A stretch of 64,000 bases of DNA, taken from positions 62,735 through 126,734 of the forward strand of contig JABJCP010000009.1 in NCBI GenBank assembly GCA_018668595.1, in the 5' to 3' direction. Positions 29,265-62,509 of this stretch are shown in pieces. This DNA comes from Candidatus Woesearchaeota archaeon. Its GTDB lineage: Archaea > Nanobdellota > Nanobdellia > Woesearchaeales > UBA11576. The notes beneath the pieces were generated by a model. It did not search any database. It worked only from the letters and a program-made list of their open reading frames with translations, and was not told where the DNA came from. Each line of letters starts with the position of its first letter. The first letter of the stretch is position 1. Made by a program: the position numbers and the translations under genes.

Positions 29265-29397
29265 ATAAATTGCCGTAGTGCTGAAAAAAGAAAAAATAAA
29301 CTGAGTTTCTATAATTATTATTCGATTTTTATATCTCCGAAAAAATAACAATCCAACCACACAAATCTTTATAAAATAAACTACGAATTCTAAAAAC

Positions 29398-44958: not shown

Positions 44959-45077
44959 ATCTAATTAAAATATTATCTAAATTAGTTATAATCCTGGCTA
45001 TGATTGTCTCTCTCACCGGAATATCTACAAATTTCTTTCAATAAACTATTTAAATCTTCTAAGTTCTTTAATGTTGT

Positions 45078-45506
45078 ATGTTAAGGGATAAAGAGGCAGT
45101 GTTGCTTAGACATTTGAGACAGGATTCAAGGAAAAGTTTGGCTAAGATTAGCAAAGAAACTAATATTCCTCTTTCTACTTTGTGTGATAATCTGAAAAAA
45201 TTAGAATCAGGAGTTATTCAAAAGCATGCTTCATTGCTTGACTTTTCAAAGTTGGGTTTTAATTTTAAAGCAACATTTGTAATAAGTACTAATAAAAAAA
45301 AAGAGTTAAGAGATTTTTTGACTCTTCACCCTCAAGTTAATTCTTTATCAACTTTAATTAATAATTATGATTTTTATGCAGAGTGTGTTTTTCGCGATCT
45401 AAAAGATATGGAATCTTTCAAAGATAAATTGGATTGTTTTGAAATTAAAGAACTGGAAGAAAATTTAATAATTGAAGAATTCAAAAAAGAAGGATTTTTC
45501 ATTTAA
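45078..45506 (+). CDS. Lrp/AsnC-family transcriptional regulator
   Basis: The HTH reads LRHLRQDSRKSLAKISKETNIPLSTLCDNLKKLE. Confidence 0.5.
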   Translation: MLRDKEAVLLRHLRQDSRKSLAKISKETNIPLSTLCDNLKKLESGVIQKHASLLDFSKLGFNFKATFVISTNKKKELRDFLTLHPQVNSLSTLINNYDFYAECVFRDLKDMESFKDKLDCFEIKELEENLIIEEFKKEGFFI

Positions 45507-46398: not shown

Positions 46399-46525
46399 CA
46401 GTTTATATATGTTATTATAAGTTTTTTATAAAATTGATATAATTCTCTTTTTTCTTTTTAAACAAATTGTTTTTTTCGGAAACTTTCCAGTATTTCATCA
46501 ATAAGCTTTTTTAAAAAAAACATAC

Positions 46526-47221: not shown

Positions 47222-47224
47222 ATA

Positions 47225-47854: not shown

Positions 47855-47909
47855 AAAAGTTAAACAAATTAAATTAAACAAATTAAATAATTGTGGATGG
47901 TGGTTTATT

Positions 47910-48170
47910 ATGGGAATTATTAGAAAAACTTTATTTTATGTTTCAATTATTAGCATGGCATCAGGTTTTGGTTATTGTGTTGGTAAAGGTGTTGGAGATA
48001 AACAGTGTCGAGAAGAAATTCATGAAGGGTATTTCACACATCCAGACTCAGGTCAGAAATATGAACTAAATGTTGAAGAAGGAACTTTAGAAAAATTAAG
48101 TGGAGAATATGAAAAACCTAAAGATTATATTGGTGAAAAAGGCCTAAAAGAAATTTTTGAAAGTAGGTAA
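47910..48170 (+). CDS. Small membrane protein
   Basis: The internal start MGIIRKTLFYVSIISMASGF follows a GGTGG SD. The track start (47754) overlaps the upstream gene. Confidence 0.35.
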   Translation: MGIIRKTLFYVSIISMASGFGYCVGKGVGDKQCREEIHEGYFTHPDSGQKYELNVEEGTLEKLSGEYEKPKDYIGEKGLKEIFESR

Positions 48171-48242
48171 TTGAGTTGTTAAGCACAGGGATAATTAAGT
48201 AATTAATTATTGGATTTTTTATTAAAATTATTAGGTGGTATT

Positions 48243-49520
48243 ATGGCAGATGTTATTAAAAATAAATTAAAGGAAAGAACAACTTTAGATGAAGAGCTTT
48301 CAGATAATCCTTCAGGTTCTGACACTCCATCACAAAGAAAATTAAAAGACAAAGATATTTTAAATAATTTAAAAGATACGGGAGTTAATCAAGATCCTGC
48401 CATCACTCAACAATTTGTTAGAGAGAAAAGGGATTTGATAAGAAATGGTCGTAATAAAAGTGCTGCAATAAAGTCTCAGTTAAAACAACCAAGAGGAGAA
48501 AATCAACAAACAGGACAAATAGGGAATACTGCAATTCAACCTTATCAACCAACTCAATCAGTTCAACCTATTCAATCAGTTAATCCTGTTCAAGTTCAAC
48601 CTTATCAACCAACTACTGTAACCTCTCAAGATGCTCTTTTAGCAATGGGTATTGGAGAAAGTACGTCGGGAGATTTAACAAGATTAAATCAAACATTGGT
48701 TTTATTTAATAAAGGTCAAAAAGAATTAAAAGTTATTAAAAAAATTGATGATTCTCAAGTATATAGAGTCTGGCATTATGTTAAAACATTAGGTGGTACA
48801 AAAAAAGCAAAAGCAAGAATTACTCAAGTATTTAGATCTCAAAATGATAATGTTCGTCAGATGAATATGATTCTTGCAAGTATGATTGCTAGATTTGGAA
48901 AAGATGCTGCAGATATTAGCGGAACATTAGATGGTCTTATTTACAATGGTGCACAAACAATTAAAGCAAGAGATGCATATAGATCTAAATTAGCACCTAC
49001 GCTTGAATCGTATAATCAGGCAACGTCACTTCTTTCAAATTTAGATCGAGATAAAGAACCGGATAAATATTATTCTCATCTAAAAACAGTTATTGATCTT
49101 AAGAGAAACTTAAGAAAATTAGGCTATGTTGTGAGAGATTCTGAAGCTACTGACAAACACAATCAAAGAGATCTTCAAAATTTATATTTACAGGAAGATT
49201 TGTTTAGTACTTTACTTTATGGTGCTATGGAAATGGCTAAAACTACTGAGCGTTATCAACAAACTCTCGACAATAATCTTAAAGTTTGGGAAGCCACAAT
49301 TCCTTTAGCCGATGCAGTCAGAGCAGTTAGTCAAGGTCTTACGGGTTTAGTCGGATTAAATAATGATTTGAATGGTCATTATGTTAGAGCAATTACAGGC
49401 ATGCAAAATATCTTTGCATCAAACCCTGGGGCTAACGCATTAGACAGTACTAATGTTCAGCTTCAGCAACTTGTCGAGGGAATTAACACTCAAAGATATC
49501 TTGCTAGTGGTCAGGATTAA
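48243..49520 (+). CDS. Hypothetical protein with N-terminal motif MADVIKNKLK and a Q/P-rich linker (QPYQPTQSVQPIQSVNPVQVQPYQP)
   Basis: It carries the N-terminal motif. A GGTGG SD precedes ATG 48243. Confidence 0.4.
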   Translation: MADVIKNKLKERTTLDEELSDNPSGSDTPSQRKLKDKDILNNLKDTGVNQDPAITQQFVREKRDLIRNGRNKSAAIKSQLKQPRGENQQTGQIGNTAIQPYQPTQSVQPIQSVNPVQVQPYQPTTVTSQDALLAMGIGESTSGDLTRLNQTLVLFNKGQKELKVIKKIDDSQVYRVWHYVKTLGGTKKAKARITQVFRSQNDNVRQMNMILASMIARFGKDAADISGTLDGLIYNGAQTIKARDAYRSKLAPTLESYNQATSLLSNLDRDKEPDKYYSHLKTVIDLKRNLRKLGYVVRDSEATDKHNQRDLQNLYLQEDLFSTLLYGAMEMAKTTERYQQTLDNNLKVWEATIPLADAVRAVSQGLTGLVGLNNDLNGHYVRAITGMQNIFASNPGANALDSTNVQLQQLVEGINTQRYLASGQD

Positions 49521-49563
49521 CTCACTAAGAATTTGATTTTTTTCATTTTGAGGATTGACTAGA

Positions 49564-50253
49564 ATGGATAAGATAAAAAACAAATTGAAACAGGATCTTG
49601 ATAAAAAAAATAGGAGACATAATAGAAAAGCAAAACGTATGTCGACCAATATTTTATCAAAATTAAAAACAACAATACCTCCTCATAGAGAAATAACTAA
49701 TAAAAGTTCAAGAAGAATTATTGATGCGCTTAAAGAACAGTATAAACAGTATAATCAAGCAATTCTTGATGTTGGAGAAATTAGGGACGAGTATCAATTG
49801 CTTGTTAATGATGAGAGTGTTAGAAATCCATTTATTGTAAGTTCTGGTCTTGTAGATATAATAAGAAATGAAACTAAAAATTTAAATTCAAATGAAAAAA
49901 AAGCAAGACGCATTTATGATTGGATTGAAAAAAACATAGAGTATGGTAAAGGATTAAAAAAATATAGTAATTCTGAAGAAGTAATTAATCAGCGTCGGGG
50001 TGTTTGTGGTGAAATGGCTTTTGTATACGTCACAATGGCAAGATGCATTGGTTTAAAGTCTAGTTATGTTAGTGTAAGAAGAGATTATAGTGGAAAAAAA
50101 GTTCATCATGCTTGTGCTGTTGTGAGAACAGAAAGAGGTAATATTTTTGTTGATCCTGCATATCACACATATGATGTGAAACACAAGGATTACGAAGTAC
50201 TTAATGATGTTGAAGTTTTAGAAAGATTTAATCAATGGAGGGGAAGAGAATAA
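49564..50253 (+). CDS. Transglutaminase-like cysteine protease domain protein with N-terminal motif MDKIKNKLKQ
   Basis: The catalytic Cys motif is RRGVCGEMAFVYVTMARCIGL. The His/Asp part is HHACAVVRTERGNIFVDPAYH. Confidence 0.55.
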   Translation: MDKIKNKLKQDLDKKNRRHNRKAKRMSTNILSKLKTTIPPHREITNKSSRRIIDALKEQYKQYNQAILDVGEIRDEYQLLVNDESVRNPFIVSSGLVDIIRNETKNLNSNEKKARRIYDWIEKNIEYGKGLKKYSNSEEVINQRRGVCGEMAFVYVTMARCIGLKSSYVSVRRDYSGKKVHHACAVVRTERGNIFVDPAYHTYDVKHKDYEVLNDVEVLERFNQWRGRE

Positions 50254-50254
50254 A

Positions 50255-50737
50255 ATGAATGATAAAATTAAAGAGCATCTAAAATATGTCAATTTCCAAA
50301 AAAATAAAGAAACATTGTCATCCTCTCTAGATAATAAAGTCGAAGTTGAAGATATTGTTGTTAAAAAAAGATCGTTAAAACCAGGATTATTATATATTCA
50401 AATTGGTCAGTATGGAACTTTTCATAGTAAAGGCAAATACGAAGCGGATAATAATTCTCATAACGGTCTCGAAGTACATGTTTCAGATGGGGTGCATGAT
50501 TATTATTTAGTTACGGGCGTTTGTGAAGAAAGTGCAAAAGAAAAAAACCAGGGTTGTCCAGGAGTTTGTAAAATTAACCTGCCTGGCGGACATTATGCGG
50601 TAGAGACATCTTATAACGGACCTTATAAAAAAAAGATAACTGTGGATGGAGATACAAAATTATATATTCACATTAAGAGCAAGCTTAGAAAAAAATCTGT
50701 AAAGAGAGTTGAGACAGGAGATAAGAAAAATGACTGA
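50255..50737 (+). CDS. Hypothetical protein with N-terminal motif MNDKIKEHLK
   Basis: A member of the N-motif family. Confidence 0.4.
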   Translation: MNDKIKEHLKYVNFQKNKETLSSSLDNKVEVEDIVVKKRSLKPGLLYIQIGQYGTFHSKGKYEADNNSHNGLEVHVSDGVHDYYLVTGVCEESAKEKNQGCPGVCKINLPGGHYAVETSYNGPYKKKITVDGDTKLYIHIKSKLRKKSVKRVETGDKKND

Positions 50738-51194
50738 TAAAATAAAAGAAAAATTAAAAAGTGAAAAACCACCAGAACCAATACCTACTTATCAAAAAAA
50801 AGATATTCAATATATCTCGACACCAATAGATAAAAAAACAGATTTAGGAAAACTTGAAGTTATGGTTTGCAAAGATTTTATGGATTGGACAGGAGATATA
50901 AAATCAAGTAAAACTGTTAGAGATTTTATGAAAAACTTTGCAAGTGTAAAACCTGGAATTGTCGTCGAGGCAAAAAGTACTCACAACGAAAAAGATGTTT
51001 ATTATTTAAACACTAGGTGGGATGGTCGTTCTAAAGTAAAAATCCCTACAGGCAATTATACAATTACTGCAATACTTGATGATAAATCTTATAGTAATCC
51101 TTCTAAGCACGCCACTGTTTACAAAGGAAAAAAAACAGAAGTAACTTTCACCATAAAAAAAGAAGACTTTCAAATCGAAAAAAAATATACCTAG
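50730..51194 (+). CDS. Hypothetical protein with N-terminal motif MTDKIKEKLK
   Basis: ATG 50730 follows a CAGGAGA SD. The track used an upstream TTG. Confidence 0.4.
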   Translation: MTDKIKEKLKSEKPPEPIPTYQKKDIQYISTPIDKKTDLGKLEVMVCKDFMDWTGDIKSSKTVRDFMKNFASVKPGIVVEAKSTHNEKDVYYLNTRWDGRSKVKIPTGNYTITAILDDKSYSNPSKHATVYKGKKTEVTFTIKKEDFQIEKKYT

Positions 51195-51197
51195 AAA

Positions 51198-51608
51198 ATG
51201 ACAGATCCAATTTTAGAAAAACTAAAAGGAAATATTATTCCTAGTGAAGAACCAGTATTAAAAGATCCTTACAAACCAAATCCTGCTAATGTAGCTGTTG
51301 AAGTAAATACTATTGAAACTAAAGTTGGAGAATTATTTAGTTTTGAAAATACAACGCCTGTACATTGCAAACAAACTTTAATTTATGAAAAAGGACTTTT
51401 CGAACTTGTTAATATTGATAAATCTCCTGTTTTAATTAATGGAGAACTTGTTTGTGGTCCTGGTCCCATCCACAAATACAATTTCAAAGCTAAACAACTT
51501 GGGAACTATTGTATAACTTGTGCTGATATCGACGGGACAAATGGTATGATATATAATTTAAATGTTTATGAAATTAATATTGCTAAAATAGATAAAAAGA
51601 GGGGTTAA
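51198..51608 (+). CDS. Hypothetical protein with N-terminal motif MTDPILEKLK
   Basis: A member of the N-motif family. Confidence 0.4.
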   Translation: MTDPILEKLKGNIIPSEEPVLKDPYKPNPANVAVEVNTIETKVGELFSFENTTPVHCKQTLIYEKGLFELVNIDKSPVLINGELVCGPGPIHKYNFKAKQLGNYCITCADIDGTNGMIYNLNVYEINIAKIDKKRG

Positions 51609-51720
51609 AATATTTTCTTTTCTCCGTCGTAAATTTAAAAAATCTGAGTTAAAGATTTCTAAAAAAGTTCTAAAAGATTTAGATTCAGAACTCAAAGAAT
51701 TAGATTCTGAATATGGCGAT

Positions 51721-52770
51721 ATGGATGCATATTGTAAATATAATGGAGTTTTAAAAAAAACAATAGGCATTATTGATAATTATTATGAAAATAATAAACA
51801 ACTAGAGTCTCGAGTTAAAGAGTTAGAAAAAAAATTAGACAGAAATAATGTTGCGTTAACATCGGATCAAGATCATGCAAATCCTACTAAGGTTCATTTA
51901 TCTACTAAATTATTTTTGATTTCTGCAGTAGTAGTAGTTTTATCCGCTGGAGGGTATGTAGCACATTCTGCATATAATGAGTTTTTAGAGTCGCAAGCAT
52001 CTGAGAAAACTTTAACAGAAGAATCAATTAATTTTAATTCAACAGAATATTCAACTTGGTTTTCGCAAATAAAAAATATTTTAGAACCAACTAATCTCCA
52101 AGACGAATCTTCTTCTAAAAATAAAACTAAGATTACTCCAACCTATACTTCTGATCGACCACTGCCGGTTCTTGTTAAACCCCCTGCAAAACCACTTGCT
52201 GTTCTTGAACAAGAAAACAATACAAAACCACTTAATGTTTCTGAAAAAGAAAACCATTCTCATAAAAATAAATCAACTAATAATTATCCAAAAAAGTTTG
52301 ATAAATCAGTTATCAAACAAAAACAATCCAAGACTAAAAAAATAGTGACTTATTCTTCTAACGAAAAACACATAGAATCTCTTATTGGTAGATTCTTTAA
52401 AGATGTTGAAAACAGGAATTTCAAAGCAACTAGTGATTATTTTTCTTGTGTGAGAAAGAGAGGTGCGGATTATAATTTTCCTGAACGGTTAGTTAAACGA
52501 TTTGATAATGAAGATGAACTTTATTTTTACAAAAGAGCAATTGTGCGCAATGTCGATGAAGAACATAATAGAAATCCTTATGTTAGTGGCAAAATTTACA
52601 ATGCTAAATTAAAAGTACAATTAACATCGTCAAATGATTCTTATTATCATGAATCTCTTGGTTGGATTTTTGCAAATTGTAAAAATCAACAAGAAAAACC
52701 AAAAGAAGGAGATTGTAAATTATTGGTTTACAAAAGTTACTTGACTAATTGTCCTGAGTTTACTTTTTAA
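51721..52770 (+). CDS. Hypothetical membrane-anchored protein
   Basis: It has one TM segment (LFLISAVVVVLSAGGYVAH). Confidence 0.35.
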   Translation: MDAYCKYNGVLKKTIGIIDNYYENNKQLESRVKELEKKLDRNNVALTSDQDHANPTKVHLSTKLFLISAVVVVLSAGGYVAHSAYNEFLESQASEKTLTEESINFNSTEYSTWFSQIKNILEPTNLQDESSSKNKTKITPTYTSDRPLPVLVKPPAKPLAVLEQENNTKPLNVSEKENHSHKNKSTNNYPKKFDKSVIKQKQSKTKKIVTYSSNEKHIESLIGRFFKDVENRNFKATSDYFSCVRKRGADYNFPERLVKRFDNEDELYFYKRAIVRNVDEEHNRNPYVSGKIYNAKLKVQLTSSNDSYYHESLGWIFANCKNQQEKPKEGDCKLLVYKSYLTNCPEFTF

Positions 52771-52790: not shown

Positions 52791-54095
52791 ATGAATATTC
52801 CAAAAACAATTTTAGAGGATTTTAAACTTTGTGGAGAACCTTTTATTATTCGCTCTAATAGAATTTATACTTTAGAGTCTGCTCAAGGAGTATTTGACAA
52901 CAATGATTTTATTCAGTTTCTCGACAAAAAATATCCTTTGGAGAAATCTTTGTTAATTTCCAATTTAGAAAATCGTTATTTTTCTTTAAATGAAAAATAC
53001 ATTAATAGTTATTTGCAACACATCATTAAAAGAGATTATGTGAGTAAAGTAGAATCATCTCACGCAGCGTTGATTTCGCAGCACAATATTTATGAGCAAA
53101 ATAAATTATCTTCTGTTGAACATTTTATCAGATCGCAGGTTGTTCCACAATACGCAGAACTTGCTAAAGATTTTTTCCAGGTTAATTCAGATGTTCCTTC
53201 AAAGCCTAAAAAAATAAAAACTGTTAGTTCTGAAACATTTGATCCTGATATGTTTCGTTTTCCAGATATTTCTGATCTCTATTCAGAAAAAAGCATTCTT
53301 GAATCTGTGATGGGTTCATTTGTTAATTCAGATTTTATTTTTACTCTTGGTGGAAGATGCTATGTTTCGTCTACTTATGATAATTCTCCTTCAGAATTAG
53401 TAAAAATAAACAATAAAGTTCATTCATTAAAATATTTAAGTTCACTTAGTAATCTTGATAAGAATTATAAAACTGCAATAATCAGAAAGTTAAATTCTGT
53501 TGCAAAAAATCATGGAGAACAACTTATTCCTAAGATTCAAAAAAATTTAGATCAAATAAAAAATCTTGAATCTGCATTTGAGGTTCAAGATAAAACTGAT
53601 TTTGGTTCAATTGGTTACCAAAAAGTTAATAATGATAAATATAGAATTTACATTAATATAGTCCCTTTTATTGCTAAAATGAGGGGTAAATTTTTTCATT
53701 TTATAAAAACTAAAGTTGGAACTGATTTTTTAATTAAAAATAATTCTTTAGAAATTTTATCTGCACCTGTAGTTATTGAAAAAGAGCGCTATTATCATCC
53801 TTTTGTTAGTTCTAGTAATAGTATGTGTTATGGAGGTAATAAACGTTGGAAATTTACAGGTGTTGAGTTTTGTAAAAAGTATCATTTAGACTCAAAAGAA
53901 AATAGGCAAATTGCAGGTTATAAAGTCGCAGCAGTTTTGGCTGAAGGGTGGAAAGTTATTCATAGAGGGTATTTGAAATCAAATTCTCCAGATACTTATC
54001 ATCCCATATCTCATTTTCAAAATCGTGAAGTTTCAAAGCAAGCGGCAGATAATTTAGTAAACAGTGGTTTGAAACTTTATGTTCAGGATGAGTGA
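52791..54095 (+). CDS. E2/UBC-like protein, paralog 1, with a long N-terminal domain
   Basis: The C-terminal motif YYHPFVSSSNSMCYGG has the same H-P-x-[VI]-x5-[IM]-C spacing as the UBC active site HPNI-x5-IC. It is paralogous to 58413..59702. Confidence 0.45.
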   Translation: MNIPKTILEDFKLCGEPFIIRSNRIYTLESAQGVFDNNDFIQFLDKKYPLEKSLLISNLENRYFSLNEKYINSYLQHIIKRDYVSKVESSHAALISQHNIYEQNKLSSVEHFIRSQVVPQYAELAKDFFQVNSDVPSKPKKIKTVSSETFDPDMFRFPDISDLYSEKSILESVMGSFVNSDFIFTLGGRCYVSSTYDNSPSELVKINNKVHSLKYLSSLSNLDKNYKTAIIRKLNSVAKNHGEQLIPKIQKNLDQIKNLESAFEVQDKTDFGSIGYQKVNNDKYRIYINIVPFIAKMRGKFFHFIKTKVGTDFLIKNNSLEILSAPVVIEKERYYHPFVSSSNSMCYGGNKRWKFTGVEFCKKYHLDSKENRQIAGYKVAAVLAEGWKVIHRGYLKSNSPDTYHPISHFQNREVSKQAADNLVNSGLKLYVQDE

Positions 54096-54206
54096 GACAG
54101 TCTTATTAATCTTAATCACATCGTCGGAACTCTTTCGGTTTTTTCTACAAAACTCTTATTAAATAAATCTTCATAAAATCATTTAATAAAACAGGGGGCT
54201 AACAAA

Positions 54207-54626
54207 ATGAGCTTACTATATTTAAGATTAGACGCATCTTTTGCAGAGACTACAACTCTTGTGAAAAGAATTCCAGAATCAAAGCTTGACGAAACAATAG
54301 AGTCTCTTATTTTGTACATGTGTGATACTTCTCCAGATGTTCTTAATCCAGAACTAATAGATCATGCGAATAGTTGTTATTCTTTTAAAGAAGTTAGGTT
54401 GGCACAAAATATAGAAGATAGTATTGAAACAATTCAAGAAGACAACCCCGCATTTGTTTCGCCTTTAAAATTATATTCTCTTGTTGGGGATATTCCTGTT
54501 ATTATGGCATCTCACAAAACATTAGCAAATAAGTCTCTTGCAGAATATAAAAATAAAATCATAACAACAAAAAAATTAGATAATGAATCTTACAAAATAA
54601 TTGATTTGATATTAAAAACTGTTTAA
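54207..54626 (+). CDS. Ubl-like small protein, divergent copy with no C-terminal GG
   Basis: MSLLYLRLDASF...YMCDTSPDVLNPEL...SCYSFKEV aligns with the other small paralogs. Confidence 0.4.
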   Translation: MSLLYLRLDASFAETTTLVKRIPESKLDETIESLILYMCDTSPDVLNPELIDHANSCYSFKEVRLAQNIEDSIETIQEDNPAFVSPLKLYSLVGDIPVIMASHKTLANKSLAEYKNKIITTKKLDNESYKIIDLILKTV

Positions 54627-54638
54627 GGTGGTTGGAAA

Positions 54639-55709
54639 ATGAATGAAATTAAAAAACTTGAAACTGTAATTGGCACAGAAGATGTTAAACTTAATGAAGA
54701 ATCTGTAATTGAAGATTTATTCGAACAGACAGGTAATTTTTTTAATGATGTGTTTATTAAAAGTAGGGTTGGGCCAAATACTAAATTAAATCATAAAAAA
54801 ATATCATCAAATAAATATTCTATTTCGATAGATTTAGAAGATTATATTCTTAAGAAGAATGATAGATATTTTAAGTTTGATAAAGTGACAATTGGCTTAG
54901 ATATTTTATTTGATAAAGAGTCAATTCAATTTTTAAGAGCTACTAAAATTAAATTAGGAAAAAAATATGATCATCCTTTTGTATTTAATGATAATTCTAT
55001 TTGTTATGGGGGTGGCTTAAGGTGGAGACTTGTTGGTGTTGATTTTGGAAAAAAATATTCTATTAAAACAGATGAAGAAAAAAATAATGCTGCTTGGAAA
55101 ACCTGTCTTGTTTTAACAGAAGGTGCTAAGGTGCTACACGAAGTACATGGTGATCAAGTCATACCTGTTAATAATTTAATGAATAGATTTTCTGATAGAG
55201 AAATATGTAAAAACAAAGCAGAATTATCTGGTTTAATTATTTATGGTGCTGAATCATCAACTAAAAAAACTCAGGAGTTACCTAACTCTAGTAATTTATA
55301 TATTAGATTGGACGGAGCTTTTGCAAACAAAGTTATTCTTGCAAAACGAGTTCCTGAAACAATTTTATCAGAGCCGTTGGATGAGGTTATTAGGTATATG
55401 TGTAATCCGACTTCGGATGAATTGAATGAAGAGCTCGAGGATAATCCTAGTAGTTGTTATACTGAACAAGAAGTTAGCACTGCGAAATTATTTCAAGAAG
55501 CATTTGATGAAGGAATTAATTCTCCGAATAAATCATTCGAGGTTCAGGCAATTAGTGTCGACGGAAATTCGCTGATTTATCTTGGCAGAGATGCTGATTT
55601 GAAAACTGTAACTCTCGATTCTAAACGTAGTGAAATTCTTATGGAAGAACATATCGATGAAGGAAATTATAATTTGATTGATCTTAAAGGAACTTATGTT
55701 AGTTGTTAA
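54639..55709 (+). CDS. Fusion protein with an E2/UBC-like core followed by a C-terminal Ubl-like domain
   Basis: The N-terminal part carries KYDHPFVFNDNSICYGGGLRWRLVGVDFGKKY. The C-terminal part (NLYIRLDGAFANKVILAKRVPET...) is about 80% identical to the free Ubl paralogs and ends ...DLKGTYVSC. Confidence 0.45.
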   Translation: MNEIKKLETVIGTEDVKLNEESVIEDLFEQTGNFFNDVFIKSRVGPNTKLNHKKISSNKYSISIDLEDYILKKNDRYFKFDKVTIGLDILFDKESIQFLRATKIKLGKKYDHPFVFNDNSICYGGGLRWRLVGVDFGKKYSIKTDEEKNNAAWKTCLVLTEGAKVLHEVHGDQVIPVNNLMNRFSDREICKNKAELSGLIIYGAESSTKKTQELPNSSNLYIRLDGAFANKVILAKRVPETILSEPLDEVIRYMCNPTSDELNEELEDNPSSCYTEQEVSTAKLFQEAFDEGINSPNKSFEVQAISVDGNSLIYLGRDADLKTVTLDSKRSEILMEEHIDEGNYNLIDLKGTYVSC

Positions 55710-55713
55710 TAAA

Positions 55714-56643
55714 ATGACTCGCGCTGCTATTTTAATCGGATCGTTGGAAAGTTTTCAAAAAGAGGAGTTTGCAGATCCTATGAAAGAATCTTTTGCAAAG
55801 ATTGGACTCGATTCAATTATTGTACCCTTAAATAAAATAGAAGAGTTAAATAAAGTAGATATTGTTTATACTCTGCCTCATAGTATTCAGGTTGATCTTT
55901 CGTTCTTAGATGAAAAAAATATTCCTATTATTAATTCGCATAGGTCTCATTCGCTTTCTAAAAATAAAATGGAAAGTAGTGATGTATTTATCAAAAATAA
56001 TATTCCAACTCCGGATACTATAACAACAGATTCTCAAGATGAATTAATTAATTTCATAAATAAACACAATAAAATTATTTTGAAGCAACCTGATATTTGT
56101 GCAGGCTATGGGCACATGATTGTTGAAAAAATCAATAACAATTATTTTGCATGGAATAATGATTCAAAAGGCGAGTTTGATTTTTCAAATCCTAATTTTG
56201 TTAAAGCAAATAAACGAGTTTTTGCACAGCCGTATTATGCACAAGATTTTATTTCTGATTTTAATCCTGATAATATTGTGTCTGTTTATAGAGCATATGT
56301 TATCGGAAATAATGTTCCTATGGCAACTGCAAGAGTTGGTAAAGATCAGCCCATTGTTAATGTTGCAAGGGGTGCACATTATGAATTTGTTACTCCTGAT
56401 AAAAAAATGAAAGAAATTGCATTAAAGACTGCAGATAGTATTGGTTTTGAAGTTGGAGTTGTTGATTTATTAAAAGATAAAAATCAAAATTATTTTGTTA
56501 TTGAATGCGATTGCGATGGTCTTACATTAGTTGTTTGTAGAAAGTTTAGAAAATTGAAAGAGTTTGAAGATAAATATGATTTTGATCAGCACATTGGCAG
56601 AAGATTAATTGAAATTGTAAATGGAGAATCTTATAGAACTTGA
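55714..56643 (+). CDS. ATP-grasp ligase (RimK-like)
   Basis: ILKQPDICAGYGHMIV fits vvKP..GS.G.GV. YRAYVIGNNVPMATARVGKDQPIVNVARGA fits the RimK D.Rv.vvG...a..R......tN...Gg pattern. EVGVVDLL...YFVIECD is also present. Confidence 0.55.
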   Translation: MTRAAILIGSLESFQKEEFADPMKESFAKIGLDSIIVPLNKIEELNKVDIVYTLPHSIQVDLSFLDEKNIPIINSHRSHSLSKNKMESSDVFIKNNIPTPDTITTDSQDELINFINKHNKIILKQPDICAGYGHMIVEKINNNYFAWNNDSKGEFDFSNPNFVKANKRVFAQPYYAQDFISDFNPDNIVSVYRAYVIGNNVPMATARVGKDQPIVNVARGAHYEFVTPDKKMKEIALKTADSIGFEVGVVDLLKDKNQNYFVIECDCDGLTLVVCRKFRKLKEFEDKYDFDQHIGRRLIEIVNGESYRT

Positions 56644-56650
56644 TTATTTC

Positions 56651-56779
56651 CTCGTCGGAACTCTTCCGCTTTTTAACATACAACCCTTATTAAATTCAAT
56701 ATTGCGTTTATATTTGTTTAGTGGGAGAACTTAAATTAAAAAGTAAAAATACATCTAAACTAGATTGAGATATACAAAA
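56651..56779 (+). promoter_or_regulatory. Conserved ~130-bp promoter/5'-leader module (copy 1) upstream of a Ubl gene, with three palindromes
   Basis: It contains CGGAActcTTCCG and TTTAGtgggagaaCtTAAA (imperfect in this copy), then CATCTAaacTAGATt immediately 5' of the start codon. Confidence 0.45.
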
Positions 56780-57205
56780 ATGAAAAATTTATACATTAGA
56801 TTAGACGGAGCTTTTGCAGATAAAGGCGTTCTTGCAAAAAAAGTTAGTGAGAATTTACTTTTAGAAACATTAGATACTGTTATTATGTGTATGTGTGACT
56901 CTACTCCTGATGAGTTTAATCATGAATTAGCTGAGAATCCTGGTAGTTGTTATACTGCGCAGGAAGTTAGAAAAGCCGAACTTATTGAAGAAGCACTAGA
57001 CGATGGACTTAATTATTGTATTACTGTTAAGGTTGATGCGCTTAGTGTAGGCGGAAATTCTTTAGTAGAACTTGGAAGAAATGGTGAACTAAGAACTGCT
57101 ACAATTGCCGATAAGAAAAATGAAATTCTTAGAAAACTTGATCTTGATGGTAAACAATATTATATTGTAGATCTTAAGATGTCTTATTTATGCCCTGGGG
57201 GTTAG
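56780..57205 (+). CDS. Ubl-like small protein ending in a free Gly-Gly (…YLCPGG*)
   Basis: It begins MKNLYIRLDGAFADKGVLAKKV and ends at stop TAG directly after GG. The start at 56780 was chosen by alignment with the paralogs; the track used an upstream TTG. Confidence 0.5.
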   Translation: MKNLYIRLDGAFADKGVLAKKVSENLLLETLDTVIMCMCDSTPDEFNHELAENPGSCYTAQEVRKAELIEEALDDGLNYCITVKVDALSVGGNSLVELGRNGELRTATIADKKNEILRKLDLDGKQYYIVDLKMSYLCPGG

Positions 57206-57216
57206 ATTCAAGTATC

Positions 57217-57350
57217 TCCTCGGAATCCTTCCGAATTTTAACACGTAATCATTATTAAATTCAATATTGATTTTATACTTATTTAGGGGGAAAACCTAAA
57301 TTATATGTAAAAAATAAAAATACATCTAAACTAGATGGATGCATATGAAA
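57217..57350 (+). promoter_or_regulatory. Promoter/5'-leader module, copy 2
   Basis: It contains CGGAAtccTTCCG, TTTAGGgggaaaaCCTAAA and CATCTAaacTAGATG (57323..57337). Confidence 0.45.
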
Positions 57351-57803
57351 ATGGAAAATTTATACATTAGATTAGACGGAACATTTGCAGATAAAGTTGT
57401 TTTTGCAAAACGAGTTTCTGAAACAATTTTATCAGAGCCGTTGGATGAGGTTATTAGGTATATGTGTGATTCTTCTCCTGATGATTTAAATAAAGAAATT
57501 GAAATAGATTATTGTTTTGATATGAATCAAGATTACATCAAAGACAGTGGTTATACAGCGCAGGAAGTTAATAATGCAAATATTATTGAACATTTTTTGA
57601 ATCAAGATATTAGATCGGACAATATTTGTGCAGAAATTCATGCTATTAGTAAGGATAAAAATTCGCTTGTTTATTTAGGTAAAACAAACAAGCTTAAAAA
57701 TGTTAATCTTGCTTCAAAAAAAAAATATTTGTTACAAAAAGAAAAAATAGGTGGCGAAAATTATTTCATTATTGACCTTAAGTTTAATTTGCTTTGCATG
57801 TAG
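57351..57803 (+). CDS. Ubl-like small protein with a divergent C-terminus (…LLCM*)
   Basis: It begins MENLYIRLDGTFADKVVFAKRVSETILSEPLDEVIRYMCD. The start was aligned to the paralog starts. Confidence 0.45.
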   Translation: MENLYIRLDGTFADKVVFAKRVSETILSEPLDEVIRYMCDSSPDDLNKEIEIDYCFDMNQDYIKDSGYTAQEVNNANIIEHFLNQDIRSDNICAEIHAISKDKNSLVYLGKTNKLKNVNLASKKKYLLQKEKIGGENYFIIDLKFNLLCM

Positions 57804-57842
57804 ATTGCAAGGTTTAGTATACTGCAGTTTTATTACTCTCTC

Positions 57843-57976
57843 CTCGGAACTCTTCCGCTTTTTAACACACAATCCTTATTAAATTCAATATAACATTTAT
57901 ACTTATTTAGGGGGAGAACCTAAATTATATGTAAAATAAGTAAAAATACATCTAGATTAGATGGAGGTATATAAAA
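57843..57976 (+). promoter_or_regulatory. Promoter/5'-leader module, copy 3
   Basis: It contains CGGAActcTTCCG, TTTAGGgggagaaCCTAAA and CATCTAgatTAGATG (57949..57963), followed by a GGAGG SD. Confidence 0.45.
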
Positions 57977-58411
57977 ATGGGAAATCTATACGTTAGATTG
58001 GATGGAGCTTTTGCAAACAAAGTTGTTCTTGCAAAAAAAGTTCCTGATACAAAGTTATCAGAACCGCTCGAAGATGTTATTAGGTATATGTGTGATCCAA
58101 CTCCGGACGCATTAAATGAAGCGCTTGCAGATAATCCTGGTAGTTGTTATACTGCGCAAGAAGTTAGCAATGCATCTTTGATTGAAGAAGCTTTAGAAGA
58201 TGGGCTTAATAGTGAGAATTCTTCGTTTGAAGTTCAAGCAGTTAGTCTTGACGGTAATTCAATGGTTTATCTTGGCAAGGATAATGAATTAAGAAGTGCA
58301 AATATAGCATCTAAGCAAAACGATATTCTTAGAGACGAAAATTTTGATGGAGAGGTTTACAAGCTTGTAGATCTTAAAGGAGTTTATGTTGGAGTTGGTG
58401 GTAAACTTTAA
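57977..58411 (+). CDS. Ubl-like small protein ending GG-KL (…VGVGGKL*), a precursor-like C-terminus
   Basis: It begins MGNLYVRLDGAFANKVVLAKKVPDTKLSEPLEDVIRYMCDPTPD. A GGAGG SD lies upstream. Confidence 0.5.
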   Translation: MGNLYVRLDGAFANKVVLAKKVPDTKLSEPLEDVIRYMCDPTPDALNEALADNPGSCYTAQEVSNASLIEEALEDGLNSENSSFEVQAVSLDGNSMVYLGKDNELRSANIASKQNDILRDENFDGEVYKLVDLKGVYVGVGGKL

Positions 58412-58412
58412 A

Positions 58413-59702
58413 ATGCAAAATTTAAATACTTTTTTAAATAGTTTTAAGCTCGCTGGAGAACCTTTTTTTATTAGAGGTGACAGGCTCTATACTTTAGAGC
58501 TTTCAAATGGTTTTTGTAACAGCGAGCAGTTTTTATCTTTAATGGAGCGAAAATATCCTCTAGAAAGATCAGTTGATATTAGCAATCTGGAGTATACCTC
58601 TTTTCTCAAACAAAAAAATTCAATTTTAAATTTTATGGAAAAACACATTAGAAATAATTTTATCAGTAAACTTGAAAGTTCAGAAAAAAAGGTAATTCGT
58701 GCAAGTGGTTTGTATGAACAAAATAGACTTTCTTCTATTGAACGATTTATTCGTGAAAAAATAATTCCTGAATATGCTGAAGTTGCAAAGCGTTTTTTAG
58801 ATGATAAATCAATAAAAACACCTAACCTTATAAAAAAAGTTTCAAAGGTTAAAGCAGAATCTTTTGATGTTAATAGTTTTGTTTGGCCAGGTATTGAAGA
58901 CTTAAAATCAGATATTAGTAGGTTGGATAAAATAATTGAAAAAGAAGGCGTTTTAATTGTTGGTGGTCGCTGTTATTCTGCATCTCGTTCAAAATCAAAA
59001 TCTTTATCTGATTATGTTAAAGCTGGAAGTTCTTTTTATAGTTTAGATTATATGTGTTGTGTTGATGAATTGGATAAAATTTACAAACAAGAATTAGTTA
59101 AGTTTTTTCAAGATACTTCAAATAAGCAGGGTAATATTTTAGTTCCTTTAATTAAGCAAAATAACCAAAAATTATCTAACTTAACAGATGCTGTTAATAA
59201 ATCTGTTGATCAAAAATTTGGAAATATTGGTTATAAGTGTGTTAGTGAACATAAGTATCAAATTTTTCTTAAGTTTAATCCGTTTATTATAAAAAAAGAT
59301 GATCAATACTATAAATTTCCTGAATTAAAATTAGGAACTGATTTAATTATCAAGAACAATATGCTTGAAATTGTAGCAGCACCTCAAGTTTTGGGTTCTA
59401 AACCATATCTTCATCCTTTTGTTTGGTCTGATAAACGCATTTGTTATTCTGGTGATACTAAACGTTGGCATTTTATAGGTATCGATTTTGGAAAAAAATA
59501 TCCTATAAATTCTGAACAAAATCAAAATGATGTTGCTTGGAAAGTCGCATTAGCTCTTTCAGAGGGTTTTAAGGTTATTCATAAAGGATATATTGGAAAT
59601 AAAATTATTCCTGTTAATAACTTACATTCTAGTTGTAAGTCTCGCAAAATTTCTTATTCAGAAATATCGCCCTCAAAATTAAAGGTGTATAACAATGATT
59701 AA
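58413..59702 (+). CDS. E2/UBC-like protein, paralog 2
   Basis: It carries YLHPFVWSDKRICYSGDTKRWHFIGIDFGKKY. The N-terminus MQNLNTFLNSFKLAGEPFFIRGDRLYTLE aligns with 52791 (MNIPKTILEDFKLCGEPFIIRSNRIYTLE). Confidence 0.45.
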   Translation: MQNLNTFLNSFKLAGEPFFIRGDRLYTLELSNGFCNSEQFLSLMERKYPLERSVDISNLEYTSFLKQKNSILNFMEKHIRNNFISKLESSEKKVIRASGLYEQNRLSSIERFIREKIIPEYAEVAKRFLDDKSIKTPNLIKKVSKVKAESFDVNSFVWPGIEDLKSDISRLDKIIEKEGVLIVGGRCYSASRSKSKSLSDYVKAGSSFYSLDYMCCVDELDKIYKQELVKFFQDTSNKQGNILVPLIKQNNQKLSNLTDAVNKSVDQKFGNIGYKCVSEHKYQIFLKFNPFIIKKDDQYYKFPELKLGTDLIIKNNMLEIVAAPQVLGSKPYLHPFVWSDKRICYSGDTKRWHFIGIDFGKKYPINSEQNQNDVAWKVALALSEGFKVIHKGYIGNKIIPVNNLHSSCKSRKISYSEISPSKLKVYNND

Positions 59703-60969
59703 TAAAAACAATAACAAATATGGTTCATCAAACAATAGTATAGATGAAGAAATTCAAAAACTTATAGGACCTATTAGAATTACTCGTGAAGCATTAGAAA
59801 AAGGTAAATTAATTGCAAAGCGTACTTGTGATATTGCAAAAAAATTTAATCTTGGAACTTTAGAAATTTATTTGTATAATCTTAATCCTATTGATAAACA
59901 AGAAAAAGGCGATTATGCTATTAGAGATTTGTACATTGCACATGAGCAAACTGTTTCTGCTATTAATTGCGAGGTTGGTGCTCAAGGTCAAATAATGTCC
60001 CGAGATATAGCTTATCAAGAGCATAATATGTATACTATTGGTTGGTCTCATTCTCATGGAGATCTAGGGGTTTTTGTTTCAGGAACTGATGATAATAATA
60101 CTAAAAATGTTGTCAAATTTTTAGGAATAGCGTCAGGGATTGATTTATTGGAAGAGTGTGGTTCAATTAATTATGAGAATATGGAAAACAAAATTACTTT
60201 TTTAGATGGATCGCAGTATTTTATTAGTGCAGAAACATCAAAAGATAAAGAGCTTGTTGAAGGTTTATTTGAAACTATTTTAAAATCAAATCCGTTAACA
60301 ATTCATACAAAGAAAAAAAAGTTTTTTAATTGGACTCCTAGTTTTGTTTTTAATTCTAAAGGAGATTTTCATCCTTTTATGGCATATTATTTAGATAGAA
60401 ATATGATGTTGGTTGATGGTTGTTCTTATGAAATTTTGGAGGAGAATAATGGCATATGTCTTGATCCGCAAGTTATTGATGAGGAAATAATTACTCGAGT
60501 TAGAGAACTCAACTTCATTAAAAATAAAAAAACGCCAGAAACTAAAAAAACTCAATCAAAATTGTACAATTTATTTTTTAAAAAAGCTGAAGAATTTGAC
60601 AAGAATCATGATAAACTCAAAGAGTATATTAAAAATAAACAGAATTCTAACCGTACTTCTAAACGAGAGTGGAAAAAAGAATCTGGTTTATCTAAAAACA
60701 TTCAAGAATCTGTTGTTGAAATGGGTGATCTTTTAGATCATTGTGAAAATGAGTTAGGGACAAATATTAGTGATGATGAACTTGCTAAAATAAAACAAGT
60801 TTATCTTGCAAGGCAGCAGCAGATTAAAGAAGCTCAACCATTAATAGAACAAAGAATTGATTCACTTTGTAATGAAGCTAACTCTCGTAATTATGTTAAG
60901 AACCACGGGTTGATTGATATGTATGAATCTATTTTAAAAAATTCTTTAGGAGGAGATATTGATGCCTAA
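59695..60969 (+). CDS. JAMM/JAB (MPN+) metallopeptidase
   Basis: The full JAMM motif E…HSHGDLGVFVSGTD (HxHx7Sx2D) is present. Confidence 0.6.
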   Translation: MINKNNNKYGSSNNSIDEEIQKLIGPIRITREALEKGKLIAKRTCDIAKKFNLGTLEIYLYNLNPIDKQEKGDYAIRDLYIAHEQTVSAINCEVGAQGQIMSRDIAYQEHNMYTIGWSHSHGDLGVFVSGTDDNNTKNVVKFLGIASGIDLLEECGSINYENMENKITFLDGSQYFISAETSKDKELVEGLFETILKSNPLTIHTKKKKFFNWTPSFVFNSKGDFHPFMAYYLDRNMMLVDGCSYEILEENNGICLDPQVIDEEIITRVRELNFIKNKKTPETKKTQSKLYNLFFKKAEEFDKNHDKLKEYIKNKQNSNRTSKREWKKESGLSKNIQESVVEMGDLLDHCENELGTNISDDELAKIKQVYLARQQQIKEAQPLIEQRIDSLCNEANSRNYVKNHGLIDMYESILKNSLGGDIDA

Positions 60970-62509
60970 TGAAGTTATTGCAGATATTAATAATCGTAAT
61001 CATTTAGCATGGAGTATTGATAAATCTATTAATATGGATTATTCAAAAAAATTAGCTGATTTAGAAAAAAATAAAACTGGTTTAAGTCAAGGGGTTTACG
61101 ATCAAAAGAAATTAGGTTTATTAGAAGAAAAAAAAGCAGAGTTAAGCAAGCTAGGAGAAGAAAGAATAAATTTATTAAATAATTTAAAAATAATGGTTCT
61201 TGGTTCAGGACCTCTTGCGCAATTTGTTAGCGGAGGGTTAATGGGTTTAGGTATTGGAACTATTTATGTCGTCGGTAATGAGATTGTTTCACGAAATGAT
61301 AGTTATGATTTTTTAGTAACTAAAGAATCAAATCTTGGAAAATCAAAAGTAGACGAAATTGTGGCTAGGATGAACGAAATTAATGATTATAATAATTTTG
61401 TTCCTGTTTTTTCAAGATTTAGTTCTGCTTTAACTAATTCATTTTATCCTTCGGATATGATTATTGATGCGACAAACTCGTCTGTTTCAAAAAATAAAGT
61501 TTTGAGATATTGTATTGATAACAAGATTCCTTTAATTTCTGCATCATCTAGTTTTAGAAATTCAAGAGTTTCTTCTTACAAACCAAACTCTGCACCTATT
61601 AGACTTAAAGATTCAGTTAATTTGGAAGCAGTTATTCACCAAGAACTTGATGGTCTTTCTCAAGACATTGTGAGTTCTGGAATTATTGCAGGAATTATTT
61701 TAGAGGAAGTTAGAAAGCAAAAGTTTTCTATGTCAAAAACAGATTTTCCTCTTAAAAATTTTCAAGTTGTAAATTATAATCCTTATTCTAAAACAAGAAA
61801 TAATAAGTTGAGAGATCTACCCAAATGTGCTAAAACTTATGCAAATAAACGTGTTTTAGTCGCAGGAGCAGGAGCGCTAGGTAATTTTGTTGCAATGGAA
61901 CTTGCTTTGTTAGGGGTTGGACAATTGGATATTTTAGATATGGATTCTGTTGAGGTTTCAAATCTTAATCGTCAAATTAATTTTGATAAGTCAAATATTG
62001 GTAAGGAATACAAAAAAGCAACAGTTCTTTTTGATCGTTTAAAAAAATTAAATCCATCTATTAATGGAACTGGAATAGTTGCAAAACTTGAAATGACTTC
62101 GGATAATTTGATTAAAGAAGGCAACTATGATGTTTTACTTGGTTGTTTTGATAATAAGATTGCAAGACAAACTTTAGATCATTTTGCGGAAAAATATAAT
62201 ATTCCTTATGTTGACGGAGGTTGTTCGACAAACGCAGGCCAGGTTGTTTCATTTATTCCTGGTTATAACCAGAAGGTCACTGAACAGGTTAATTTTCCAG
62301 ATCCTTCTAATAGTGGTAATCAGGTAGGTTGTGCTATTGTAGCTCAAGCTAATCCTAGTATTATTACTTCAAATGCAATTATTGGCAGTGCAACTGTTGC
62401 AGAGGCTTTAAAGATTTTATCAGGGCAAAATTATGGGGATGTTGGAGGTTCTTTTAACTATCGTAGTAATTCTCCTGACCGTATTTGGTTGGATCCTTAT
62501 GTTCCTTAA
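60959..62509 (+). CDS. E1-like (ThiF/MoeB/UBA) activating enzyme with tandem Rossmann domains (N-terminal degenerate, C-terminal active)
   Basis: The N-terminal domain reads IMVLGSGPLAQFV with no SNLNRQ. The C-terminal domain reads RVLVAGAGALGNFVAMELALLGVGQLDILDMDSVEVSNLNRQ. GGCSTNAGQV lies downstream. Confidence 0.65.
   Translation: MMPNEVIADINNRNHLAWSIDKSINMDYSKKLADLEKNKTGLSQGVYDQKKLGLLEEKKAELSKLGEERINLLNNLKIMVLGSGPLAQFVSGGLMGLGIGTIYVVGNEIVSRNDSYDFLVTKESNLGKSKVDEIVARMNEINDYNNFVPVFSRFSSALTNSFYPSDMIIDATNSSVSKNKVLRYCIDNKIPLISASSSFRNSRVSSYKPNSAPIRLKDSVNLEAVIHQELDGLSQDIVSSGIIAGIILEEVRKQKFSMSKTDFPLKNFQVVNYNPYSKTRNNKLRDLPKCAKTYANKRVLVAGAGALGNFVAMELALLGVGQLDILDMDSVEVSNLNRQINFDKSNIGKEYKKATVLFDRLKKLNPSINGTGIVAKLEMTSDNLIKEGNYDVLLGCFDNKIARQTLDHFAEKYNIPYVDGGCSTNAGQVVSFIPGYNQKVTEQVNFPDPSNSGNQVGCAIVAQANPSIITSNAIIGSATVAEALKILSGQNYGDVGGSFNYRSNSPDRIWLDPYVP

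Follow-up and report, generated by a model that had tools for sequence, protein, structure and literature searches.

Repeated blocks before archaeal ubiquitin-like genes hold a dyad in fixed register with a predicted TATA box: a candidate Lrp/AsnC-type control region

Why should a non-coding block of about 130 base pairs (bp) recur in front of one gene after another of the same family? The question is raised by 64,000 nucleotides (nt) of DNA on contig JABJCP010000009.1 (the window, throughout this text, is that whole stretch). According to the NCBI names of the proteins in the window the host is a Candidatus Woesearchaeota archaeon, a member of DPANN, so archaeal promoter rules apply. The blocks precede the genes for ubiquitin-like (Ubl) proteins in an archaeal Ubl-E2-E1-JAB cluster. 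An earlier note described each block as carrying three palindromes, here numbered 1 to 3 from the 5′ end, and took them to be either a shared set of transcription-factor operators or a structured cis-regulatory RNA leader. The answer proposed here, which we hold with moderate confidence, is that each block is the Ubl gene's own control region, in which an Lrp/AsnC-type operator, palindrome 1, stands at a fixed distance before a TATA box, a pairing shared with the promoter at the head of the cluster and with that of a regulator gene.

The blocks are of two forms, the long copies being defined by gapped alignment as a repeat family:

56651..56779, + strand: module copy 1, long form, before Ubl1 (ATG at 56780)
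57216..57350, + strand: module copy 2, long form, before Ubl2 (conserved ATG at 57351)
57840..57976, + strand: module copy 3, long form, before Ubl3 (ATG at 57977)
54121..54206, + strand: short-form copy before Ubl0 (ATG at 54207), made up of dyad, T-run, box, G-run Shine-Dalgarno sequence and start codon

As a repeat family the long copies span 56651-56786, 57216-57351 and 57840-57975, and they begin 565 and 624 nt apart. They differ pairwise at 12–18% of 125 aligned nt (82–88% identity), and copy 1 has in addition an 8-nt deletion. The repeat is thus real and non-coding, but "near-identical" overstated it, and the copies are not in tandem, since the Ubl genes separate the blocks and alternate with them. 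The degenerate fourth copy that had been reported at 54121-54206 is likewise real (nhmmer E = 2.7e-4), but its homology is confined to the first 44 nt (54121-54164), which hold palindrome 1 with one mismatch, the T-run and CTTATTAAAT, without palindromes 2 and 3.

What all four copies have in common is therefore palindrome 1 and an A/T-rich box downstream of it, and the same pair stands at the head of the cluster:

54124..54138: palindrome 1 dyad, copy 0, TCGGAA-CTC-TTTCGG (one G/T mismatch)
56655..56669: palindrome 1 dyad, copy 1, TCGGAA-CTC-TTCCGC, proposed Lrp/AsnC-type operator
57220..57234: palindrome 1 dyad, copy 2, TCGGAA-TCC-TTCCGA (6+6, perfect)
57844..57858: palindrome 1 dyad, copy 3, TCGGAA-CTC-TTCCGC
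57875..57884, + strand: box CTTATTAAAT, predicted TATA box; equivalents at 54155-54164, 56686-56695 and 57251-57260 (ATTATTAAAT)
46476..46516, + strand: cluster-head promoter, with dyad TCGGAA-ACT-TTCCAG (46476-46490) and box TTTTTTAAAA (46507-46516)

The core CGGAA-N3-TTCCG is perfect in copies 1–3, and with at most one mismatch it is found five times in the window, against 0.36 expected. The box (CTTATTAA) begins 24 nt past the dyad centre at every site, including the cluster head of the related lineage called L008 below. Written as TCGGAA-N26-TTATTAA, the pair is exact in all four window copies and has one mismatch at 46476; there are six matches compared with 0.35 expected. The start codon at the cluster head lies at 46535 or 46538, a leaderless geometry, and belongs to the gene that opens the entire + strand cluster.

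Ubl proteins of this family are very rare. Among 1.84 billion protein clusters an exhaustive profile search gave nine representatives, and a word-indexed search of 5.8 billion proteins returned the window's own paralogues and one 40%-identical protein only. Five further lineages were obtained by the exhaustive representative search followed by genome-context look-ups. Their gene orders are ...transglutaminase-like, E2-like, Ubl, E2-like (L008/L001); E2-like, ATP-grasp, gap, Ubl, E2-like (L009); Ubl, E2-like, E1, JAB (L010); Ubl, E2-like, E1 (L011); and Ubl, JAB (L012). The Ubl upstream regions of L008 and L001 are identical to each other, and L005 and L006, being 100% identical to the window, add no information. 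Two profile scans of genome contigs, with the Ubl and the E2-like alignments, found no orthologous locus, and a scan of metagenome contigs returned only the contig already known.

Beside their Ubl homologues, L008/L001 and L009 have TCGGAA-N26-TTATTAA without a mismatch, and L010 has it so with CGGAA alone. The Ubl proteins of these three lineages, which are metagenomic, are 22–47% identical. The spacer of 25 nt diverges freely among lineages while the register holds, as an ungapped stack of the sites makes plain. At the L008 cluster head the dyad reads CCGAAA-ATA-ATTCGC. The earlier note had made its proposal depend on conservation of the palindromes in orthologous loci, and for palindrome 1 this is what is found (L008, L009, L010).

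The same element emerges when no motif is assumed. In a k-mer ranking over seven Ubl upstream regions the top 5-mer was CGGAA/TTCCG (6 of 7 regions, p = 4e-5), tied with the Shine-Dalgarno word GGAGG, which served as positive control. TCGGAA was the top 6-mer (5 of 7, p = 6e-6), and CTTATTA the top 7-mer. Ten sites could be aligned; seven have 4–6 of the 6 possible pairs, and 80% of cells are symmetric in register as opposed to 13–63% when the partner arm is slid. CGGAA/TTCCG is also enriched in the intergenic DNA of the window, where 13 of its 39 occurrences fall within 8.7% of the sequence (p = 1.6e-5, or p = 0.008 with the paralogous copies collapsed). Six of 17 are intergenic in L008 (p = 0.001).

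Three other groups of such words were noted. On the - strand at 12106-12116, in T-rich DNA after a GAPDH-like gene, CTCGTCGGAAG matches the left arm of palindrome 1 and its flank at 10 of 11 positions, inverted. Three CGGAA/TTCCG words, including the direct repeat GATATTCCG present twice, lie within 80 nt at 28473-28551, before the gene at 28552, and may constitute another site of the same or a related regulator. In L010, positions 3387-3425, between the Ubl operon and a divergent unannotated gene of 295 amino acids (aa), hold three TTCCG words at intervals of 11 and 17 nt as well as a GATTTC-N8-GAAATC palindrome; this promoter region looks like a multi-site version of the operator.

Could the likeness of the blocks be no more than descent? 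A basal promoter may have been copied by tandem duplication and homogenised by gene conversion, the palindromes, at least 2 and 3, being chance features frozen by descent. Identity of 80–93% does run unbroken from the module into the first 60–130 coding nt, after which it drops to 50–65%. Silent-site differences among Ubl1–3 are lower in codons 1–45 (0.36–0.50) than in the remainder (0.52–0.62). A sign of gene conversion is seen in a 140-nt tract, 87% identical, between 55293-55432, the Ubl domain of an E2-Ubl fusion, and 57357-57496 at the 5′ end of Ubl2; its silent-site difference is 0.22 compared with 0.5–0.66 elsewhere. The fused domain has no module, and the tract shows that homogenisation was patchy. 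As this explanation would have it, palindromes 2 and 3 are no commoner than chance predicts and are missing in other lineages. Because gene conversion contributes, conservation among the paralogues alone is no proof of function.

The modules differ at 0.12–0.18 per site, and are thus conserved two to four times better than silent sites. Fisher tests of the modules against the silent sites of codons 1–45 gave p = 0.07, 3e-5 and 0.007, and against the remainder p ≤ 1e-8, so that two of the three comparisons show the module to have diverged less than even the silent sites of the homogenised codons. Within the modules the palindrome arms vary at 3 of 34 positions and the other sites at 25 of 91 (p = 0.03). 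Copying and conversion also leave unexplained the exactly spaced dyad and box in three lineages whose Ubl proteins are 22–47% identical, and the pair at non-paralogous promoters, those of the cluster head and of the regulator gene. We regard descent and homogenisation as an unlikely account of the blocks as a whole.

Two other sources of repeated blocks were considered and rejected. Integron gene cassettes are flanked by attC sites, which are long imperfect repeats, whereas the palindromes here are local hairpins and the genes are paralogues in one operon; moreover, no integrase was noticed in the annotated parts of the window. A mobile element such as a miniature inverted-repeat transposable element does not fit either, as the copies are confined to the fronts of Ubl genes and lack terminal repeats.

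A run of T residues follows the dyad, and it raises the question of whether palindrome 1 serves the gene behind it rather than the gene ahead:

57859..57863, + strand: T5 run directly after the dyad; equivalents at 54139-54144 (T6), 56670-56674 (T5) and 57236-57239 (T4 only)

Palindrome 1 with its T-run would then be a hairpin-type terminator or insulator of the upstream gene, and the rest a basal promoter with no dedicated regulator. A consensus scan flags 56656-56668 and 57845-57857 as such (5-bp stem with three G-C pairs, then CTTTTT), and CGGAACTCTTCCG followed by CTTTTT after a stop codon does resemble a bacterial-type intrinsic terminator. Throughout the window copies the element lies 12–41 nt past a stop codon, the T-run is the sole run of at least five T between that codon and the box, and the change in the arm of copy 0 would give a G-U wobble, tolerable in an RNA hairpin. 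U-tracts are, in addition, the archaeal termination signal (PMC8716108).

In an archaeal host, however, a U-tract suffices, and other genes of the window as a rule end in T-runs placed right after their stop codons without any hairpin. The stem has just 5 bp. It is the downstream TATA box that the element follows: its distance to the box is constant, while the gap behind it, back to the preceding stop codon, may be as short as 12 nt or as long as about 90 nt. In L009 the T-run comes directly after the stop codon and none lies past the dyad; the L008 Ubl gene likewise has none there, and in copy 2 the run is no longer than T4. The dyad is found, finally, where no co-directional gene precedes it, at the 46476 head promoter and in the divergent region of L010; as the divergent neighbour leaves nothing to terminate there, the dyad is better read as a promoter element. 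A hairpin terminator thus seems quite improbable. The T-run itself is another matter. Given that other window genes end in bare T-runs and that U-tracts are the archaeal signal, the run after the operator is probably the termination signal of the upstream gene, with no part for the hairpin.

What, then, is the box? Perfect octamers TTTATATA, TTTAAATA or TTTATAAA begin 30–34 nt before the ATG of six window genes, so leaderless mRNAs are common here. The conserved box lies 28–32 nt before the ATG of five genes (window head, L008 head, L010 divergent gene, and the Lrp-like genes of L008 and the window), and because this is the position expected in leaderless genes the box is a predicted TATA box. 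At Ubl0 and in L009 it is 52–53 nt before the ATG, which implies a leader of about 20 nt, and a G-rich Shine-Dalgarno sequence precedes the start by 8–10 nt. In the long form (Ubl1–3 and the L008 Ubl gene) the distance is 94–102 nt. A sigma-70 promoter scan was uninformative (53 sites vs. 58 expected), that model being irrelevant to an archaeon. To our knowledge almost no DPANN promoters have been characterised. The long form alone has one more element of this kind, a possible alternative promoter:

57896..57903, + strand: second TATA-like octamer TTTATACT; equivalents at 56707-56714 (TTTATATT) and 57272-57279

Which protein might bind the dyad? The earlier note had pointed to Lrp, TrmB and wHTH regulators adjacent to the locus, but the Lrp gene at 519 and the TrmB gene at 8033 are some 45–55 kb distant. 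The candidate that keeps its place in synteny is a different gene:

45078..45506, + strand: gene of the Lrp/AsnC (FFRP) family, candidate palindrome-1 binder

Its product gives full-length alignments with solved Lrp/AsnC proteins in the PDB (E = 6.5e-12 to 5e-9), and E = 5e-9 with PH1519 (FL11) of Pyrococcus. Three homologues stand directly upstream of the syntenic cluster in L008. A dyad-plus-box profile made from nine sites had one match outside its training set, and this fell in the promoter of the L008 Lrp-like gene 3973-4407 (E = 0.003). There the centre of the dyad CCGAAA-ACT-TTCCGA precedes the box by 24 nt and the box in turn precedes the ATG by 32 nt, a pattern that would be expected of autoregulation. 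The L008 head promoter scores E = 0.99 with a three-module profile, and is convincing only through its register and the nine-site profile.

The synteny extends further upstream of the Ubl genes. Window positions 45541-52770 correspond to 5653-8963 of L008, and the shared set comprises Lrp-like regulator(s), unknowns of 230 aa and about 400 aa, a transglutaminase-like protein (57% identity) and an unknown of about 120–160 aa. As this synteny is conserved, the regulon may include a transglutaminase-type peptidase or ligase.

Most archaeal Lrp proteins regulate their own genes, and activators among them bind one dimer site just upstream of the transcription factor B recognition element (BRE) and TATA box, at a "highly constrained" position (PMC2995911). 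The arrangement here is similar to those of Ptr2, LysM and Ss-LrpB: one predicted dimer site precedes the box, with its centre 24 nt away. Those regulator genes are linked to their targets and usually autoregulated; here an FFRP gene flanks the cluster in two genomes, its promoter having the site in L008 and a half-site only in the window. Many Lrp targets, in contrast, have several regularly spaced sites, whereas the window promoters have one dyad each, and the genes concerned here are for Ubl conjugation rather than for amino-acid or central metabolism.

FFRP sites have the form abcdeWWWe'd'c'b'a', the optimum for FL11 being CCGAAA[AAT/ATT]TTTCGG (PMC2715240). The dyads here agree in length (13–15 bp), in their arms of 5–6 bp and in their 3-bp centre, and two L008 dyads read CCGAAA-ATA-ATTCGC and CCGAAA-ACT-TTCCGA, those of the window TCGGAA-CTC-TTCCGC. 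In FL11, Leu24, Ser36 and Thr37 contact a G at base b and the T bases opposite d and e. The window protein keeps these contact residues, and the half-site C-G-G-A-A agrees with the predicted G at b and A at d and e, which is a consistency check, not proof. At the position of His39, the residue that reads base c, the window protein has Cys and those of L008 have Tyr, Phe or Ala; base c itself, unlike the A of the FL11 operator, is G in the window dyads, while it is A in two of three L008 dyads (head and Lrp-gene promoters) and G before the L008 Ubl gene. The dyad centre reads ATT in L009, ATC in L010 and ATA at the L008 head; the window head and the L008 Lrp gene share ACT, and Ubl0–3 are preceded by CTC or TCC.

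A second archaeal operator offers a comparison. NrpR operators are repressor sites at or after the TATA box. They have the sequence GGAA-N6-TTCC in methanogens (PMC4335013) and resemble the dyad in being inverted repeats in an archaeal promoter region with the same GGAA/TTCC half-sites, but they differ in spacing, N6 compared with N3, and no NrpR homologue was noticed near the locus, although no search aimed at one was made.

Several observations weigh against an Lrp/AsnC-type operator in each block. Some concern the dyad: its right arm pairs poorly in L009 (3 of 6) and is missing from the L008 Ubl site (2 of 6 pairs), where a partner half-site lies upstream instead, and true covariation amounts to a single double change, so that the symmetry could be merely inherited. 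The independent lineages number only five, of which L011 has no motif and L012 has CGGAA at another distance. Others concern the protein. The promoter of the window regulator has a CGGAA half-site only (45017-45021), one nt off register, that is, 29 rather than 30 nt before the box CTATTTAAAT (45046-45055), which is 32 nt before the ATG. The three central A/T pairs of FFRP sites are needed for bending (PMC2715240), and G:C at all three severely weakened FL11 binding, whereas the centres before Ubl1–3 are CTC or TCC. The predicted site here is separated from the BRE by about 9–10 bp, beyond the "few base pairs" of Ptr2, LysM and Ss-LrpB. Homogenisation, not selection, may account for part of the conservation of the modules. 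In the long form the second octamer (TTTATAYT), 21 nt past the box, matches TATA better, and which promoter Ubl1–3 actually use is consequently uncertain. It is, moreover, from sequence that we infer both the binding protein and the sign of regulation.

On the other side, the same dyad-box pair at the cluster head, at an Lrp-type gene and in related genomes makes it probable that one regulator controls the whole system. As a shared operator, then, the claim of the earlier note survives for palindrome 1, which has a fixed register in several lineages. It does not for the set of three: their sequences are unrelated, and palindromes 2 and 3 occur at chance frequency. These two, and a start-stop pair between them, belong to the long form:

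57906..57924: palindrome 2, TTTAGG-GGGAGAA-CCTAAA; perfect also at 57282-57300, degraded at 56717-56735
57949..57963: palindrome 3, CATCTA-GAT-TAGATG; perfect also at 57323-57337, 5 bp at 56752-56766
57930..57935 and 57305-57310, + strand: ATG-TAA start-stop mini open reading frame (mini-ORF); deleted in copy 1

The description of three palindromes in each block is correct for copies 2 and 3, where all are perfect, but copy 1 has palindrome 2 altered at two positions that do not compensate each other (TTTAGT...CTTAAA) and palindrome 3 without its outer pair. Palindrome 3 was said to lie immediately 5′ of the Shine-Dalgarno sequence. This holds for copy 3, in which its final G is the first G of GGAGG (57963-57967), whereas copies 1 and 2 read GAGAT and GGATG. 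Perfect inverted repeats with loops of 3–8 nt number 1.8 per 130 nt over the window with arms of at least 5, and 0.57 with arms of at least 6, so three short palindromes in 130 nt are not unusual here, and only the GC-rich palindrome 1 is improbable alone. A window-wide search for palindromes 2 and 3 gave no meaningful extra site; the one at 62690 is coding, and the one-mismatch site at 44975 is at background frequency. Palindrome 2 is absent outside copies 1–3, contrary to what conservation in orthologous loci would require, and palindrome 3 has no more than a loose counterpart, in the long leader of L008 (ATCTGG-N12-CCAGAT, then GGA). The two are lineage-specific, with no support beyond the paralogues.

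Is there nevertheless a role for the transcript? The module could be a structured 5′ leader RNA in which hairpins 2 and 3, perhaps within a UAUACUU/AGGUAUA helix covering the Shine-Dalgarno sequence, control translation or stability. A consensus fold gives all three hairpins and the long-range helix, with one compensatory pair (C-G to U-A). Hairpin arms vary at 3 of 34 positions as compared with 5 of 13 in the loops, palindrome 3 adjoins GGAGG in copy 3, and the long leader of L008 has the hairpin AUCUGG-N12-CCAGAU followed by GGA, with z = -2.37.

The structures are inconsistent, however. Fold z-scores are -0.68, -2.67 and +0.15 for copies 1–3, with minimum-energy structures that all differ, and an unrelated intergenic region of the same window reaches z = -4.8. 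Rfam searches were negative both at the gathering threshold and with E ≤ 1. In copy 1 palindrome 2 is broken by its two non-compensating changes and palindrome 3 is one pair short; the short-form promoters of Ubl0 and L009 have neither; and short perfect inverted repeats arise by chance at 1.8 per 130 nt. The long-range helix is made of A and U only, in low-complexity, TATA-like sequence, and if transcription starts about 30 nt past the box its 5′ strand and part of palindrome 2 would not be transcribed. Palindrome 1 is no part of a leader, as it is upstream of the predicted TATA box. The RNA leader of the earlier note is therefore very improbable as an explanation of the module. A weak leader hairpin at palindrome 3 may exist, and is thinkable because the long leader of L008 holds the loose counterpart.

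A candidate for an undescribed structured RNA lies elsewhere in the window. Within an intergenic region of 348 nt (29050-29397), positions 29095-29240 of the + strand hold three perfect hairpins in a row: TTGAACAC-GTA-GTGTTCAA (29138-29156), TCGAGC-GTA-GCTCGA (29162-29176) and CAGTAAC-TTG-TTACTG (near 29183-29198). The folding energy of the + strand is -46.3 kcal/mol (z = -4.82), and none of 200 shuffles was as stable. No Rfam family was matched, apart from a fragment of transfer-messenger RNA at E = 0.27.

The long form may instead be read by its geometry. Palindrome 2 coincides with the predicted start of transcription, and the G-run that forms its loop resembles the Shine-Dalgarno sequence of the short form. 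The ATG-TAA, with that G-run before it, lies 54–55 nt past the box, the same offset as the real starts of Ubl0 (52) and L009 (53). Because of this match we take the start-stop to be a positional relic of the ancestral start, which would make the last 45–50 nt, including palindrome 3, a later addition. We regard palindrome 2 as a by-product of the relic Shine-Dalgarno sequence and ATG, and palindrome 3 as no more than a weak local hairpin or an unrelated second site. Measured from the second TATA-like octamer, the ATG-TAA mini-ORFs lie 33 nt downstream, as in a leaderless gene. In L008 a 5-codon ORF at 10471-10488 (ATGGTAGCTATCTGGTGA) begins 33 nt past the box and overlaps the 5′ arm of the hairpin.

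These features allow a more elaborate idea. The extra 45–50 nt of the long form, with the mini-ORF and the hairpin at the true Shine-Dalgarno sequence, and the 5-codon ORF in L008, might be a translation-coupled device for each Ubl paralogue on top of the shared Lrp-type operator, while the operator hairpin and T-run might serve as terminator and activator site at once, linking the firing of each promoter to the end of the Ubl transcript before it. We give this combination little credence.

To return to the operator and its regulator, the following scheme is proposed. Each block would be the private control region of one Ubl gene, and its conserved core would act as DNA: a 13–15-bp dyad (TCGGAA-N3-TTCCGN) centred 24 bp upstream of the TATA box (CTTATTAA). 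A dimer of the cluster-linked Lrp/AsnC (FFRP) regulator, the product of 45078-45506, would bind the dyad and from this fixed position control the recruitment of TBP and TFB, more likely as an activator. The cluster-head promoter, the regulator's own gene and the separate promoter before every Ubl paralogue would be co-regulated. Separate Ubl promoters would make the amount of modifier independent of the enzymes, and the T-run between dyad and box would end upstream transcripts, insulating each Ubl unit. Transcription would start about 30 nt past the box, giving leaders of about 20 nt for Ubl0, the short form, and 65–70 nt for the long forms of Ubl1–3.

The Ubl genes belong to a run on the + strand throughout, at 52.8–62.5 kb of a window whose G+C content is 29%:

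52791-54095 and 58413-59702, + strand: two E2-like proteins of about 430 aa with an HPF...CYGG motif
54207..54626, + strand: Ubl0, divergent paralogue
54639-55709, + strand: E2-core-Ubl fusion
55714-56643, + strand: RimK-type ATP-grasp enzyme
56780..57205, + strand: Ubl1, ending in CPGG before the stop
57351..57803, + strand: Ubl2
57977..58411, + strand: Ubl3, ending in VGVGGKL before the stop; predicted fold, beta-grasp with an insert
59695-60969, + strand: JAB peptidase
60959-62509, + strand: ThiF-type E1

The four free-standing Ubl paralogues (starts at 54207, 56780, 57351 and 57977) are of about 140 aa each. Their C-termini vary, the last residues before the stop being CPGG, VGVGGKL, VSC or LCM. 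Ubl2 has in-frame ATGs at 57339, 57345 and 57351; public calls take the first, giving 154 aa (P0002), and homology among the paralogues favours the third as the likely start. Pfam and PADLOC gave no match for the E2-like HPF...CYGG proteins. The cluster 52791-62509 is unusual in that it combines Ubl, E2, E1 and JAB with an ATP-grasp enzyme and holds five Ubl copies, four free-standing and one joined to an E2 core. Elsewhere in the window, 12490-26455 has five consecutive genes for proteins of 740–1100 aa, which is unusual for a small DPANN genome; in the three that were scanned (12490-21423) the products have Ser/Thr protein-kinase domains and long N-terminal regions, and one of these regions has HEAT repeats.

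For DPANN archaea the locus provides a promoter model, in which the TATA box lies about 30 nt before the ATG, many genes are leaderless and T-runs act as terminators. An FFRP dimer site at a fixed distance before the TATA box is known from Ptr2, LysM and Ss-LrpB, so the instance and its Ubl target are new, and the principle is not. For this very rare archaeal system of ubiquitin-like conjugation the result is a concrete proposal of a regulon, with one Lrp-type regulator and one 15-bp site, and it suggests that the modifier genes are transcribed apart from those of the enzymes.

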